Source of the DNA: Bacteroidia bacterium
GTDB taxonomy: Bacteria; Bacteroidota; Bacteroidia; UKL13-3
Direction of reading: 5' to 3'
Assembly: GCA_041665785.1 (NCBI GenBank)
Contig: JBAYIE010000006.1
Coordinates: forward strand, 38,021-102,020
Length of the DNA: 64,000 nt
How positions within the stretch are numbered: position 1 is the first letter of the stretch; each line of letters starts with the position of its first letter. Below are positions 58,144-63,985 of this stretch, one piece after another. A model generated the notes under the pieces. That model was not told the origin of the DNA and did not search any database. It saw only the letters and a list, made by a program, of their open reading frames with translations. The position numbers and the translations under genes were made by a program.

Positions 58144-59153
58144 GCTTCTTTGCTCAGCTGTTTGCGCTCTTGTATGAACGTGTAAATTAAGGAAAAAGTT
58201 CCGACTGCCAGAATCATGAGCATTTGCATGCCGTGTGAAACAAAACCAAAAACCCCGCCCCCCAGCGAACTTACTCCGTATAAGGCCAGTCCTTTAGCTA
58301 CAAAAATATGGTAAGCTCCGATACCGCCTGAAACCGGGGCTGCAAAACCAAATGTACCCACTACCAATATGCTCATTGCAGCCGAAATTCCAATGTGCGA
58401 CGTTTCATCGATGGCCATCAGGTAGCAATAGGTATTCAGAAAATACAATCCCCAAATCAATGCGGTTTGCAAAAAAAACATTCCCGGAGATTTCAATTTA
58501 AACACCGAAGCAAACCCATTTCCAAATCCCCGAATCAGGTTAACTATTTTTGCAATGAGGGTCATTTGCAACAGATGCACTCTACTCCGGTAAACCAAAT
58601 AACCAACCAACAGTAAAATCAGTAAAGCTATAACTCCATATGCAGCCGGGAATCCGGCAATTTTCTCTTCCAGGGGAGTAAAAAATGTTTCCGAAAAAAA
58701 ACTATACAAAGTGTCAAATTCGATCACCAATACACCGGCAGTCAATGCAAGCAAAATCAACATATCAAAGACCCGCTCCACCACAACGGTACCCAGCGAT
58801 TCATGCATGGGAATGCGATCGGTACGGTTTAAAATACCACAACGGCTCACCTCACCCATCCGGGGAATGGCAAAATTGAAGAGGTATCCGATCATCACGG
58901 CATTGAAAGCGTTCATGCCTGATGGTTTTTTGCCGAGTGGCTCCAGCATCAGGTTCCAGCGCAGGGCGCGCACCAGATGACTCGACAGGGAAACTGTAAC
59001 GGCCATGAAGATCCAGAAATAATTGGCATTGCGGAATCCGTCGAGCAGGGCTTCGTAATTAAGGTTGAGGTTTACGAATGCCAATACCAGCAGGCCCACA
59101 CCGAGGCCAAAAAAGAGGAGGAACTTAGCTATGGATTTAAGTTTTCCGGTCAA
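58140..59153 (-). CDS. Lysylphosphatidylglycerol-synthase-like transmembrane domain (UPF0104, flippase-like) protein.
   Basis: [29 protein letters not shown]...[26 protein letters not shown] is typical of UPF0104. Confidence 0.7.
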
Positions 59154-59500
59154 ACCGAAAGGCGGTTATTGTTATCGGGATATACAGCAACAGGCTTATA
59201 TTGTTTGGCTTCTTCGAAATCCATGGTGGCGTATGAAATGATAATGAGGTGATCTCCCACAAAGCCTTTACGGGCGGCAGGACCATTGAGGCAGATAATG
59301 CCTGAATTGCGCTCTCCCTTGATGATATAGGTTTCGAGGCGTTCGCCGTTGTTTACGTTCACTACCTGTACCTTCTCGTTTTCGATCATATTGGCTGCCT
59401 CCATCAATGCTTCATCGATGGTAATGCTACCCACGTAGTGCAACTCCGTTTCGGTAAGTTTGGCGCGGTGTATCTTGGATTTGAGTACTTCTATTTGCAT
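59150..59500 (-). CDS. panD: Aspartate 1-decarboxylase.
   Basis: [29 protein letters not shown] with the pyruvoyl-forming G-S cleavage site. Start chosen at MQIEV. The ORF track extends 29 codons further upstream. Confidence 0.85.
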
Positions 59501-59607
59501 AAAATCGGTGCAAATGTAGGAGTAATATTTGATATTGCCTCGAAGCGAAACTATGAGTACCTTCGTCCCCTTGTATAAACTCACCATCTACGAGGTTATA
59601 CAAACTA

Positions 59608-59694
59608 CGGAGAGTTGTCAGAGTGGCCGAACGAGCGCGCTTGGAAAGCGCGTATACTGTAACAGGTATCGAGGGTTCGAATCCCTCACTCTCC
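59608..59694 (+). tRNA. tRNA-Ser (anticodon GGA), type II with a long variable arm.
   Basis: ggagagt acceptor stem pairs with actctcc. Anticodon stem gcgcgc / gcgcgt with loop ttGGAaa. TTCGAAT T-loop. Near-identical in architecture to E. coli tRNA-Ser(GGA). Confidence 0.85.
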
Positions 59695-59701
59695 GCAAAC
59701 C

Positions 59702-59730
59702 CAAAATCCCGCTTTTGCGGGATTTTGTAC
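59702..59730 (+). terminator. Hairpin immediately after tRNA-Ser.
   Basis: aaaatcccgcttttgcgggatttt: a 10-bp stem with a 4-nt loop. Confidence 0.55.
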
Positions 59731-59736
59731 GTTAAC

Positions 59737-60003
59737 GAGCACTGCGTCAAAAGCCCCAAAGCTTTTGTAAGCAGGGCGAAGTGAACGTACAACAAATTCC
59801 CGCCTAGGGAATTTGGGTTTGTTTCTCCCCCCAACGGGATCGCGCGCCAGCGCAATCTTTCCTGATTAGTTAGTTTCCGATAGCACTGCGTCAAAAGCCC
59901 CAAAGCTTTTGTAAGCAGGGCGAAGTGAACGTACAACAAATTCCCGTCTAGGGAATTTGGGTTTGTTTCTCCACCCAATGGGATCGCGCGTTAGCGCAAT
60001 CTT
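59737..60003. repeat. Two tandem direct copies of a ~122-bp element (59737..59859 and 59882..60003) downstream of tRNA-Ser.
   Basis: agcactgcgtcaaaagccccaaagcttttgtaagcagggcgaagtgaacgtacaacaaattcccg(c/t)ctagggaatttgggtttgtttctcc(c/a)ccca(ac/at)gggatcgcgcg(cc/tt)agcgcaatctt. Copies differ at about 6 positions. Each contains aattcccgNctagggaatt and aaagc..gcttt hairpins. Confidence 0.8.
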
Positions 60004-60102
60004 AAAGTATTATTTATATGTAAAATGCAATTCTTTTGAAGGATTCCCAAAAATATGCACCACCCATATTTCAATTTAAATTTGAATAAATCCAATATAG
60101 TT

Positions 60103-60501
60103 TCACTTTACCCGGAATCCTAATTCATAACAACTATTATCAGTGGGATTATAATTAAAAGTGCAACCTGAATTCTCCCGATTATTCTTTTTTAGTTTTG
60201 ACTCATCATTATATTTATTTACAGTGTCATAACACTTTCGATTTGAATAAACCATAAAGTAATAAAAAGTAAAGAAGCCGAGATAAGCCAGAGCCAAAAA
60301 AAAAATTATATAATCTCTTTCTACCTGATTGATCGTTTTTATTGAGATCAAAGTCATACCTATTGTTATACTCCAAAGAATAGTAATTATTGTCATAAGA
60401 TTTAGTGCTCCCCAGTGATGCCTATCGTTTTTTAGAAATCGAAAGAAGTCATAACATCTATAATAAAATATATTTAACAATGTCTTCATTTTACCCTTCA
60501 A
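60103..60501 (-). CDS. Small membrane protein (2 transmembrane helices), translationally coupled to the upstream Fic gene.
   Basis: 132 aa with hydrophobic segments LMTIITILWSITIGMTLISI and IIFFLALAYLGFFTFYYFMVY. Overlaps the Fic gene by 4 bp. AT-rich. Confidence 0.5.
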   Translation of the reverse strand: MKGKMKTLLNIFYYRCYDFFRFLKNDRHHWGALNLMTIITILWSITIGMTLISIKTINQVERDYIIFFLALAYLGFFTFYYFMVYSNRKCYDTVNKYNDESKLKKNNRENSGCTFNYNPTDNSCYELGFRVK

Positions 60502-61580
60502 CCAGCTTTTAACAGATTAAACAAATCAATATTGATATACAACATATCTCTACCCACCTTTTCACCTTTCAAAACACCGATCTTCTCAAGGTCTTTCAGG
60601 TATTTGCTTGCCGTAAAGCGTGTGATGCCGAGTTGATCTTCCAATGCCGATATCCTCGCGTAGGGTTGATGAAACAGCACTTCTACCAGTTCTTTGGAAT
60701 AAATCTTTGGCCGCTTCAACTTTACTTTCTCAATTGTTTTTTCTAACAATAACTTAATTCCCCGGATAGTTTTGATCGTATCCGTTGCAGAATATGCTAC
60801 CGATTCCAGCATATATACAATCCATTCTTCCCAATTTCTATTTTGACGAACATTATTCAACCCTTTATAATATTGCTTCTTCTGTTTAATTATAAATGAA
60901 CTTAGGTATAAAATAGGCAACTCAAGCAATCCTTCATGAATGAGATAAAGAACATTTAAAATACGCCCGGTTCTGCCATTTCCATCATAAAATGGATGTA
61001 TAGATTCAAACTGATAATGCATTATTCCCATCCTAATCAATGGATCCATATCCTCGTTCGTTCCATTTATATATTCTTCCAGATTCTTCAGTTTATCCTG
61101 AATAATATCTTTCCCAAACGGGGGGGTATAAATTACTTTACCAGTTCGGACTTGCTTTAAAGCAGTTCCGGGCTGATTTCTTATCCCGGCATTATTCCCC
61201 ATCAGGCATTCCTGAATCTTCATCAACTCTCGGGTCGTTATAAGTTTTTTCTTTTTGATCAACTCATATCCCAGCCACATCGCTTGCTTATAATTCAGAA
61301 CCTCTTTAACAGCAGCATTCAAATCCGTATTACCAACCGAATATGCCTTATAAAGCTCATCCTGTGTGGTTACAATATTTTCAATCGCTGAACTATCTCT
61401 GGCTTCACGCAGTACCAGACTGTCTAAAATGATTACCGGGTTTGGGATCAGACCGGTCATTCCTTTGAGTTCGGCCAAGGCTTTATTCGCTTGAATCGCT
61501 TTATTATAAACCTTGGGTGTCAATGTTAACTTTGGCGGTAATAACGGAAGTTTATTATATGGTTTATCTGGGCTGTACAT
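60498..61580 (-). CDS. Fic/DOC family protein (class II, N-terminal inhibitory motif, C-terminal winged-helix).
   Basis: Fic motif HPFYDGNGRTGR. Inhibitory S-SAI-E-N motif near the N-terminus. C-terminal HTH-like region (ISALEDQLGITRFTASKYLKDLEKIGVL). AT-rich. Confidence 0.85.
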   Translation of the reverse strand: MYSPDKPYNKLPLLPPKLTLTPKVYNKAIQANKALAELKGMTGLIPNPVIILDSLVLREARDSSAIENIVTTQDELYKAYSVGNTDLNAAVKEVLNYKQAMWLGYELIKKKKLITTRELMKIQECLMGNNAGIRNQPGTALKQVRTGKVIYTPPFGKDIIQDKLKNLEEYINGTNEDMDPLIRMGIMHYQFESIHPFYDGNGRTGRILNVLYLIHEGLLELPILYLSSFIIKQKKQYYKGLNNVRQNRNWEEWIVYMLESVAYSATDTIKTIRGIKLLLEKTIEKVKLKRPKIYSKELVEVLFHQPYARISALEDQLGITRFTASKYLKDLEKIGVLKGEKVGRDMLYINIDLFNLLKAG

Positions 61581-61589
61581 TATCTGGCC

Positions 61590-61745
61590 ATTTTTGATAT
61601 GTTAATTTTTTCACGTTTTTTCAACATATCTCAAAAATACGTGAATTGCTTTAACATATCCAAACAATATGTTTAAAGTATTGGGTTATTTCAACATATT
61701 GCAAAAATGGGTGCGTTCCTTTAACATATCCCCTCCCCAAAAAAC
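61590..61745. promoter_or_regulatory. Upstream region of the Fic gene with six reiterated TT(C/T)AACATAT(C/T) motifs in both orientations, arranged as two ~45-bp direct repeats.
   Basis: atatgttaa, ttcaacatatctc, tttaacatatcc, caatatgtttaa, ttcaacatattgc, tttaacatatccc. Units ttcaacatatctcaaaaatacgtgaattgctttaacatatcc and ttcaacatattgcaaaaatgggtgcgttcctttaacatatcc. Confidence 0.5.
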
Positions 61746-61798
61746 CCTTCAATGATTTTGTGCCCTGATTCCTCACACACTCACCCACTCACTCATAC

Positions 61799-63985
61799 TC
61801 ATTCTCCTTTCCTCTTCCCAAAATACTCCTTCGCCTTTTCCTTATAGTAAGGCTGCATTTCGGCCGGAATGGTTTGCAGCAATTCCTGCTCTTTTTGTTT
61901 TTGTTTCTGGTACTGCTCAAAAGAAGGGGGCGCTGCGCGCGGCTTTTCTTTCGCCTGTTCCGATTCGCGTTTCTTGTCTTCTTCCTGCTTGCGCTCGGCT
62001 TTCTCGCTTTCCAGCAGGCGTGTCATGATTTCTTCCTGGCGCTGCAACATTTGACGCGTGAGGTTTTTGTTGAAGAGTTCCTTTTCGGTTTGTTCCATCA
62101 AACGTTGCAATTCCTGCAGTTTGGCATTGCCTCCAAGCTGCTCCTTTTCTTTTGCCCCTAACTCGTTCAACATTTTTTGCATTTGCTGTCGGATGGCCAT
62201 TTGCTGAGCTGCCATGCGTGCATATTCCTGACTGCCCATTCCGGGTTTTTCGCCCGGCTTGTTGCCCTTACCTTCCTGTTTGTTCAACCCTTCGCGCAAT
62301 TGTTTGTTCAGCTCTTCCTGCATTTTCTTCATGGTCGACATGCTCTTGCTTTTTCCTTTACCCTTGCCTTTTCCTTGTCCCTTCTTTTGTTGCTTACCTT
62401 TTTCGCCGCTGCTCTTGGCTTGCATTTGCTCCTGCAATTGCTTGAGCACTTCACTCAACAGCACCCCGAGGTTGTTGGCATTCATCATGGCTTGTTGCTG
62501 ATTCAACCGGATCTGACCAATATTACGCGAACCATAACCCTCGATGCTTTTATCCAGGTTGGCATTCAGTTTCGATACTTCACGGTTGATGAAGGTACTT
62601 ATTTCAGGAATGCGCTTGCTTAAGGCCACCAGCGAATCTTCAATGATGCGGGCATTGTCTTTGATGTTTTTCTGCCTGCGTGCCATATCCACGTATTGCG
62701 GATTGTAATTGTTGACCCGTTTAAATTCTTCCATCAATTGCTCCTGATCCGTACTCAGCTGTATCGTATTCTCTAAAATTTCCCGCAAGGCTTCAGCATT
62801 GATTTCATCTTCCTTTTGCTCTTCGGCATCCAGTTCCTTCTTCAACTTATCGTTCAGCTCCTTCATTTTTTTAGCCGCCTTCTTCTGACTTTCAGCCGCG
62901 TTTTTTGGATCTTCTTTTTCCAGCTGCTCTTCACTTTGTTTTTGATCCTGCTCTATTTCCTGTTGCTCCTTTTCAGTGTTCCCCAATTCCTTGGGCTCTT
63001 CCAGTTCTTTGTTTTTTTCCTGTATATCTTTCAGCTCTTCTTTCAGGTCTTTAAATTCCCCGGAAAGCTTTTCTTGCTCCAATTGGATCTCTCGAAGGCC
63101 TTTCTTTCCCTCTTCTTTCTCGGCGCCGGCAGGCTTATCTTTACCGGAACATTTTTTCGCTAAATCTTCCTGCTTTTGGGTAAGCTCATCGAGTTGGCGT
63201 ATGGCTTCTTCGCGCTTCTTTTCCAGTTCCAGTTGTTTAAACTGCTCTAGCATGCGATCCAGTTCTTTCTCTACATCTTTATTGTTCATCTGCAGCTTTT
63301 CCATCTCATCTTTCACCGCGTCTTTGTTTTGTCGCTGCATCATTTCTTCCAGTTGCTGCATGAGTTTTTTCATCTCATCGCTCATCACCTCATTAAACAA
63401 CTTGTTGATTTGCTCCTGCTTTTCCATCAAAGCATCCTGCTGCTTCCTGAATTCCTGTTCCTGCCGTGTTAATTCCTTTTGCTTGTTTTTGATTTGTTCG
63501 ATATCGCGGTTCAGTTCCTGTTGGCGTTGCAGAATTTTCTCCAGCTTCTTTTTCTCTTCCCAGGTAAATTCACGGTTCTCGTGCATTTTGTTTTCGATGG
63601 CTTTCAATTCCTTCTGCAGATTTCGTGCTTCACGGATCGCTTCTTCCATTTGTTGCTTCAATGATTCGCTTCCACTTTCGTGATTTTTTTCGAGTTCATT
63701 TACCGATGGTGCTTTATATACCATCACCTTTGAACGTGTAGATTTAGCTCCAAAAACCCCATCGTTATCCCACACTTCAAAATAATATTCTACCTGATCC
63801 GACGGACTGATCCCTATTTCGCTGAGGTTAATCTGATAACTGAAACGCGCCGTACGCGAAACGGCATCCATCGAAACCGGCAAACGGTGCAAACCGGATT
63901 TTATTTTTTCTTCCTGTTCCGATGTGGTGTATCTGTAATTAAAGGTCAATCGCGTTAAACCATGATCGTCTTCTGCATCTCCCAT
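61799..63985 (-). CDS. Long coiled-coil protein, K/E/Q-rich; N-terminus probably beyond the window edge.
   Basis: More than 700 aa of heptad-like EK-rich sequence (LQKELKAIENKMHEN..., EKEQLGGNAKLQELQRLMEQ...) with a GKGKGKGKSKS stretch. The ORF runs to the window end. Confidence 0.55.
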   Translation of the reverse strand: MGDAEDDHGLTRLTFNYRYTTSEQEEKIKSGLHRLPVSMDAVSRTARFSYQINLSEIGISPSDQVEYYFEVWDNDGVFGAKSTRSKVMVYKAPSVNELEKNHESGSESLKQQMEEAIREARNLQKELKAIENKMHENREFTWEEKKKLEKILQRQQELNRDIEQIKNKQKELTRQEQEFRKQQDALMEKQEQINKLFNEVMSDEMKKLMQQLEEMMQRQNKDAVKDEMEKLQMNNKDVEKELDRMLEQFKQLELEKKREEAIRQLDELTQKQEDLAKKCSGKDKPAGAEKEEGKKGLREIQLEQEKLSGEFKDLKEELKDIQEKNKELEEPKELGNTEKEQQEIEQDQKQSEEQLEKEDPKNAAESQKKAAKKMKELNDKLKKELDAEEQKEDEINAEALREILENTIQLSTDQEQLMEEFKRVNNYNPQYVDMARRQKNIKDNARIIEDSLVALSKRIPEISTFINREVSKLNANLDKSIEGYGSRNIGQIRLNQQQAMMNANNLGVLLSEVLKQLQEQMQAKSSGEKGKQQKKGQGKGKGKGKSKSMSTMKKMQEELNKQLREGLNKQEGKGNKPGEKPGMGSQEYARMAAQQMAIRQQMQKMLNELGAKEKEQLGGNAKLQELQRLMEQTEKELFNKNLTRQMLQRQEEIMTRLLESEKAERKQEEDKKRESEQAKEKPRAAPPSFEQYQKQKQKEQELLQTIPAEMQPYYKEKAKEYFGKRKGE

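Follow-up and report, generated by a model that had tools for sequence, protein, structure and literature searches.

Fic AMP-transferases are toxic when deregulated, and their control in bacteria is partly understood. In Yersinia pseudotuberculosis, CccR is a class II Fic protein with a C-terminal HTH that acts as a T6SS effector; its footprint, AGATAATCAT-N26-ATGATAATCT, consists of spaced inverted 10-bp repeats lying over its own -35/-10 elements, and the protein represses its own promoter 3.3-fold in a manner that requires the dimer (PMC9755527, 2022). SoFic (SO_4266, mloA) of Shewanella oneidensis is an AMP-transferase whose target is EF-Tu, and the part of a preprint available on it (bioRxiv 10.64898/2026.07.09.737422) reports specific binding of the SoFic dimer to the 100 bp immediately ahead of its own gene, DNA binding being dependent on the dimer; within that part the site is left undefined and transcriptional regulation is not analysed. 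CbFic2 of Coxiella burnetii, with a Fic_N-Fic-wHTH arrangement, likewise couples DNA binding to dimerisation, yet it binds DNA without sequence specificity, and DNA switches it between AMPylase and deAMPylase (PMC10628234). Specific DNA binding is therefore not universal among wHTH-Fic proteins.

The gene considered here lies in a 64-kb stretch of Bacteroidota DNA (the window), on the minus strand at 60498-61580, and encodes a Fic protein of 360 amino acids. Pfam recognised Fic_N (7e-27), Fic (1e-16) and the wHTH domain SoFic-like_C (1.4e-28), the last of these (PF21248) being matched over its full 76 positions by residues 278-353 (60522-60749, minus strand). The Fic motif HPFYDGNGRTGR is intact at residues 195-206, and H195, P196, D199, G200, N201, G202, R203 and R206 are invariant among 41 relatives. 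Also intact is the N-terminal class II inhibitory-helix motif, SSAIEN at residues 63-68, which fits (S/T)xxxE(G/N) and in which S63, S64, E67 and N68 are invariant among relatives. Sequence matches in the PDB led to SoFic over the full length (~1e-81), and an AlphaFold2 model (pLDDT 84) superposed on SoFic 3zcn with a TM score of 0.96 and an rmsd of 1.5 Å. Judged by its Fic motif, inhibitory helix, wHTH and modelled fold alike, the protein is a SoFic-type class II enzyme. The wHTH of the model comprises helices at residues 296-301, 310-317 and 321-333, a strand at 307-309 and a wing at 337-350. Its recognition helix H3, RFTASKYLKDLEK (residues 321-333 with boundaries taken from the model; 60582-60620, minus strand), opens with R321-F322; R321 is invariant among relatives, and F322 occupies the position whose residue changes together with the variable bases of the DNA repeats described below.

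Upstream of this gene, the original prediction had noted six copies of TT(C/T)AACATAT(C/T), in both orientations, packed close to the Fic start. The packing stood up to closer analysis: the AACATAT core occurs six times, in both orientations, within 133 bp (61597-61729), compared with 15 times in the other ~63.9 kb of the window. The strict pattern did not, as it fits just four of the six copies, one copy being one base off and another having N=A. Exact matches to TTNAACATAT number five in the 64-kb window against 1.5 expected, and all of them fall inside 61620-61729; they include one inverted copy with N=A (TTAAACATAT, 61667-61676), and the sixth copy (61596-61605) differs from TTNAACATAT by one base, its minus-strand reading being aTTAACATATC. 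When the 218-bp intergenic region was shuffled 20,000 times with its dinucleotides preserved, no more than three copies of the core arose, and in none of 3,000 shuffles of that region did any 7-mer reach six, so that the frequency of the motif is above chance for local DNA of this composition. A search of the 64-kb window for further clusters of the motif found none outside the Fic upstream region. The two direct repeats of ~42-45 bp that had been described likewise exist, and they proved to be part of a longer duplication (repeat family D1) of 65 nt with 75% identity, at 61597-61661 and 61667-61731, spaced 70 bp apart. When the two units were compared, the motif cores and a CAAAAAT box were identical and the spacers had diverged.

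The motifs are held in an intergenic gap of 218 bp between the Fic start and the stop codon of the preceding gene on the same strand (61799-63985). Read along the minus strand, on which Fic is encoded, the array spans 16-150 bp upstream of the Fic start codon. Alignment of 47 half-sites from six close loci gave the half-site consensus RATATGTTGAAA. Read in the direction of the gene, with F denoting a forward and R an inverted half-site, F-N13-R and F-N3-R pairs alternate, giving spacers of 3 bp and 13 bp. Six half-sites (F1, F2, R2, F3, F4 and R4) are intact in the window out of eight expected, and the two decayed ones are both R partners of the 3-bp-spaced pairs. In the distal predicted operator unit (61667-61731), F1 (ATATGTTAAA, 61720-61729, minus strand) has lost its 3-bp-spaced partner (61709-61716). 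It is followed by a -7-like box, CATTTTTG (61702-61709, minus strand), an imperfect match to TAnnTTTG that is conserved between both units, and then by the 13-bp-spaced pair whose left arm is F2 (ATATGTTGAA, 61690-61699, minus strand; inverted repeat I2) and whose right arm is R2 (ATATGTTTAA, 61667-61676, plus strand). In and beside the promoter-proximal predicted unit (61597-61661), a -33-like TTTG (61661-61664, minus strand) is placed 21 nt upstream of a predicted -7 promoter box, TATTTTTG (61632-61639, minus strand), a perfect TAnnTTTG match situated at the proximal decayed R; a spacing of 21-22 nt is also found in loci L096 and L098. Half-site F3 (ATATGTTAAA, 61650-61659, minus strand) sits between the -33 and -7 elements. 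Its degenerate partner reads TTCACGTAT on the minus strand (61637-61646), and comparison with L096, L098, L095, L106 and L001 shows an intact (T/A)(T/A)CAACATAT fused to the -7 box at this position in the orthologues. F4 (ATATGTTGAA, 61620-61629, minus strand) begins 2 nt after the -7 box and so covers the expected transcription start; across a 13-bp spacer it is paired with R4 (GATATGTTAA, 61596-61605, plus strand; inverted repeats I3 and I5), which ends 15 nt before the Fic start codon. A three-codon upstream ORF (ATG GCC AGA TAA, 61580-61591, minus strand), the stop codon of which overlaps the Fic start (TAATG), is absent from L096. At the other end of the gap, the array is separated from the stop codon of the preceding ORF by a (CTCA)6-like tract and a C-rich stretch (61772-61795).

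The -7 promoter consensus of Bacteroidota is TAnnTTTG. A sigma-70 promoter scan of the region gave three weak matches; the model behind that scan does not cover Bacteroidota promoters, and a TAnnTTTG scan was therefore used. A TAT(C/T)TTTG box was found at -44 to -59 in six of the seven loci of the close subgroup, where it is fused to the R half-site of a 3-bp pair and followed 2 nt later by the next F. The inverted pairs thus flank and overlap both the TAnnTTTG box and the expected start site of a promoter that is predicted from the consensus alone.

Set beside the described systems, the window locus resembles that of CccR in that a Fic protein carries its own C-terminal DNA-binding domain and inverted repeats overlap its own promoter, which in the window is a predicted one. 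It differs in that CccR has one pair of half-sites, whereas the window array comprises 6-8 half-sites, paired across 3- and 13-bp spacers and grouped into two 70-bp units. CccR is also distant, with 29% identity over 45% coverage to SoFic, and it is a T6SS effector, whereas nothing suggests secretion of the window Fic. Superposition of the window model on PDB 7xux, which we take to be CccR from its title and release date, gave TM scores of 0.57-0.60. SoFic has the same three domains and the same fold at 42% identity, but its half-site, taken from an orthologue, is ATGTCGAT with an R-Q helix rather than ATATGTTGAA with an R-F helix, and sigma-70-type promoters are expected in its host in place of the Bacteroidota type of the window. 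For CbFic2, whose fold matches the window model with a TM score of ~0.6, no operator or autoregulation is described. Type II toxin-antitoxin operators, such as those of class I FicT/FicA, share the proposed logic of negative feedback on a potentially toxic enzyme at palindromic promoter operators; here, however, there is no separate antitoxin gene, and the inhibitory helix and the DNA-binding domain reside in one polypeptide.

The array was present upstream of Fic in all close orthologues for which upstream DNA was at hand. These share 63-80% identity with the window protein: L095 80%, L098 76%, L096 and L097 74%, L099 67%, L001 66% and L106 63%. Their neighbourhoods are unrelated, comprising a TPR protein and a DEAD helicase in L095, a TonB-dependent receptor in L096, DHDPS and cytidylate kinase in L098, genes different from those of the other loci in L106 and again different, unannotated ORFs in L001; hence the array travels with the Fic gene. 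In every close locus Fic is a solo gene, with 5-10 motif copies in the 260 bp upstream, and matches to ATATGTTGAA with one mismatch are concentrated in those 260 bp, against 0-3 elsewhere per locus of 5-9 kb. In L096, which has the most intact array, successive half-site centres are spaced 21, 19, 11, 19, 21, 19, 11, 19 and 21 bp apart, and the 70-bp period that results (21+19+11+19) recurs in L096, L098 and L001; the same pair spacings were read by eye in L106. The orientation of the array relative to Fic is identical in all seven close loci. A metagenome scan with the single Fic protein returned relatives of 44-55% identity and none of the close subgroup, and among the matches listed in a plasmid search, relatives were below 60% identity and the window subgroup was absent. 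An isolated ATATGTTGAA-N13-TTCAACATTT pair was also observed in L106 (4501-4533), in another intergenic region 0.9 kb downstream of Fic and between two genes without a Pfam match. This pair may be a further target or a remnant.

The comparison was extended to ~100 related loci, including ~50%-identical relatives drawn from many phyla. Allowing one mismatch, the top 8-mer was present in at least five copies in 36 of 89 upstream regions compared with 4 of 89 coding controls, and the best ATGTNNN in at least three copies in 16 of 89 upstream regions compared with 0 of 89 controls. Because ATGTNNN counting under-calls arrays whose copies vary, ATGTNN counts and direct reading of the sequences took its place. 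The repeats of the subgroups have an ATGT core in common, and the bases that follow it vary with the residue after the invariant Arg of helix H3. In raw counts, which ignore shared ancestry, an R-F helix went with ATGTT(G/A)A in 7 of 7 loci; R-Q with ATGTCGA in 5 of 8; R-R with ATGTACA in 6 of 10, with one more having GC; and R-I or R-V with (TC)ATGTA(T/A)A in 9 of 12. This co-variation of helix and half-site spans Bacteroidota and Gammaproteobacteria. The ATGT-core triplet was not found in many R-K, R-N, R-L and R-E loci. The R-K subgroup (L009-L054; helix ERKAASRYL), the largest Bacteroidota subgroup of SoFic-like proteins, lacks the ATGT core and has instead a single highly conserved pair, TTTGTACCAAA-N8-9-TTTGGTACAAA (e.g., in the upstream 40 bp of L022), which encloses a TATTTTTG -7 box ~10 bp before the start codon. 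Pairs with a 3-bp spacer were seen again in both the R-I/V and the SoFic subgroups, and pairs with a 13-bp spacer in the former, which is consistent with a common protein architecture that reads different bases. Two cases bear on the predictive use of the helix. P0080 is 58% identical to the window Fic and 44% identical to SoFic, yet in its R-Q helix and its CGACAT repeats it agrees with SoFic, suggesting that the helix residue predicts the repeats better than overall similarity does. L106, which was picked for its R-F helix at 63% identity, had a full ATATGTTGAA array, as predicted.

The sites upstream of SoFic orthologues were likewise the outcome expected from the R-Q rule. An orthologue with 99% identity to SoFic (L102, from a Shewanella sp. 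other than MR-1) carries, in the 100 bp ahead of the gene, the counterpart of the fragment bound by SoFic, three ATGTCGAT half-sites, arranged as ACATGTCGAT-tga-ATCGACAT, a 3-bp-spaced inverted pair with the geometry of the window, plus a further ATGTCGAT; three more copies of the half-site follow in the next 50 bp. The ATGTCGAT motif is also present at a Photorhabdus SoFic orthologue. In L102 (1-5119) the SoFic gene interrupts a type I restriction-modification locus, with hsdR on one side and hsdM/hsdS on the other, and in L101 a related Fic gene adjoins a phage-type integrase and an HSDR_N fragment; these contexts suggest a link to defence or mobile islands.

A scan of viral contigs with DNA alone, for ATATGTTGAA-N12-14-TTCAACATAT, yielded 11 matches, nine of which were probably coincidences within coding sequence (one phage lineage and very AT-rich DNA); the others were L114 and L117. 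L117 (IMGVR_UViG_3300011933_000077, 1779-2960) encodes a SoFic-like Fic with 44% identity and an R-F helix (SRFTAAKYL), so that a search starting from DNA led independently to a protein with this helix. Two tandem ATATGTTGAA-N13-TTCAACAT pairs begin at the stop codon of this Fic gene, none being found upstream of it, and a 394-aa gene follows them at a distance of ~230 bp, so the L117 Fic may regulate its downstream neighbour. In the phage lineage (L107, L108, L111, L112, L113, L115 and L116) a 32-bp palindrome, ATATGTTGAA-N12-TTCAACATAT, is found near the 3′ terminus of a conserved ORF of 202 aa. A Fic gene is absent from the fetched loci of that lineage, and the palindrome is probably a coding coincidence inherited once.

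In the window, Fic and its array are part of a low-GC islet (60000-61750; 28-40% GC compared with 44-51% in the flanks) that adjoins a tRNA-Ser gene and contains, besides these two, a 132-aa ORF only, without an integrase. The islet looks like a horizontally acquired insert. Directly 3′ of the tRNA-Ser(GGA) gene (59609-59696) are two tandem copies of an element of ~135-144 bp (59738-60016) that are 92-96% identical, each ending in GGGAATTTGGGTTTG, which is complementary to the 3′ flank of the tRNA; the element has no further copy in the window and no Rfam match. The 132-aa ORF (60103-60501, minus strand) encodes a hydrophobic product, begins with TTG and is in a 4-nt overlap with the Fic stop codon. 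Pfam gave weak hints only (DUF3169), and the ORF was rejected as a conserved partner or antitoxin, as no homologue was found beside any other fetched Fic locus. On the far side of the array, the 728-aa ORF (61799-63985) that shares the strand of Fic is rich in Lys and Glu, has no Pfam match and probably encodes a coiled-coil protein. Because it is on the same strand as Fic and no terminator was found, read-through transcription could bypass an operator located in the gap.

We think it likely, from the sequence and from the analogy with CccR and SoFic, that the array is an autoregulatory operator, bound by dimers through the wHTH of Fic itself and blocking the promoter embedded in it, with negative feedback as the result. 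The region 61596-61731 would then be the promoter-operator of the Fic gene, in which each 70-bp unit is built from four half-sites, one 3-bp-spaced and one 13-bp-spaced inverted pair. Dimers of the window Fic would bind these pairs via the recognition helix that starts with R321-F322, and transcription would start near the -7 box. With half-sites positioned between the -33 and -7 elements, directly against the -7 box and across the predicted start and leader, bound dimers should keep RNA polymerase out. The regulation is presumably repressive, by analogy with CccR and from the positions of the sites, and such feedback would keep a potentially toxic, auto-inhibited AMP-transferase low and buffered. 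The original prediction had named an operator as one architecture and, as one option, autoregulation by the Fic C-terminal wHTH; the conserved array, the helix co-variation, the overlap with the -7 box and the precedents of CccR and SoFic all support this. Several findings count against it: the decay of two out of eight expected half-sites in the window, the position of the L117 array, which follows the Fic stop codon instead of preceding the gene, the possible read-through from the upstream ORF, the unspecific DNA binding of CbFic2, and the many R-K, R-N, R-L and R-E loci that lack an ATGT-core triplet.

Other explanations of the array were weighed. The motifs might be operators of a different, host-encoded transcription factor with Fic as merely one of its targets. 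Such a regulator, or further targets, could lie elsewhere in the genome, the 64-kb window being all that was in view, and the isolated pair in another intergenic region of L106 is of the kind that this explanation would call for. However, the array stays with Fic in different hosts and in neighbourhoods that are unrelated and share no conserved regulator, and the window contains no second cluster. The half-site changes with a residue of Fic's own helix, in Bacteroidota as well as Gammaproteobacteria, and this co-variation makes another repressor unlikely. We give even less credence to an action at the RNA level, in which an F4/R4 hairpin in the 5′ leader would control translation or mRNA stability. 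The leader does fold into a 10-bp hairpin (-8.3 kcal/mol, z = -2.95), and the whole region has z = -2.8, but such a fold arises from any inverted DNA repeat, and most copies are upstream of the predicted -7 box and hence not transcribed from it. Mismatches between the arms are not compensated (TTAACATAT vs ATATGTTGAA; TTCAACGTAT in L096 and L001), the half-sites hold a sequence consensus beyond mere pairing, and an RNA mechanism does not explain why they vary with a residue of a protein helix. An Rfam search of 59000-62200 returned a tRNA only, and thus no known RNA element in the array.

Sites of rearrangement or replication, whether an invertible promoter, recombinase arm sites beside the tRNA-Ser gene or iterons, appear extremely improbable. 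Bacteroidales are known for invertible promoters, the -7 box is flanked by inverted repeats, and the low-GC islet lies next to tRNA-Ser. Against this, no recombinase- or Rep-like ORF stands out between 57.6 and 64.0 kb (from the ORF list, three ORFs of which were scanned with Pfam), and the same architecture occurs where neither a tRNA nor an integrase is nearby. An invertible promoter of the Bacteroidales type was rejected given the single orientation of the array in seven loci, the mere 45 bp between the inverted-repeat arms and the lack of an evident recombinase-like ORF in that interval. The alternative label of iteron-like architecture, which had been attached to the repeats at the outset, had to be dropped: the sites are mainly inverted pairs, no Rep-like ORF stood out among the listed neighbours, and the array moves with Fic in chromosomal contexts.

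Autoregulation by Fic itself admits a bolder extension, which we regard as possible though rather doubtful: that SoFic-like Fic genes across phyla are self-contained, mobile, autoregulated cassettes with a recognition code, the arrays of which also serve as catalytic platforms. Under such a code, the invariant Arg and the residue next to it would set bases 5-7 of the ATGT-core half-site, with F specifying TGA, Q CGA, I or V A(T/A)A and R ACA. In the window subgroup the operator would have expanded to 8-12 half-sites phased at 70 bp, an array that could accommodate several dimers. Since DNA binding is coupled to dimerisation in SoFic (so far as the available part of the preprint goes) and CbFic2, and dimerisation to catalysis, the array could also set the balance between AMPylation and deAMPylation.

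Self-repression by wHTH-Fic proteins is a known mechanism, represented by CccR and, on the evidence of the available part of the preprint, by promoter binding of SoFic, and the window most likely adds a clear new example rather than a new principle. Relative to the literature searched, three features deduced from sequence comparison appear to be new: the definition of a half-site and of its pair geometry in the SoFic-type group, an array of several 70-bp units in this Bacteroidota subgroup, and the specificity pattern tied to a single residue. A concrete, predicted operator consensus with fixed geometry, RATATGTTGAAA, is now available, as is a predicted SoFic operator, ATGTCGAT-N3-ATCGACAT, and the one-residue specificity rule can be addressed by a single point mutation, F322Q. 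The main value of the locus is as a well-defined, testable example of Fic self-control, in which the gene and its predicted control region move together as one unit.
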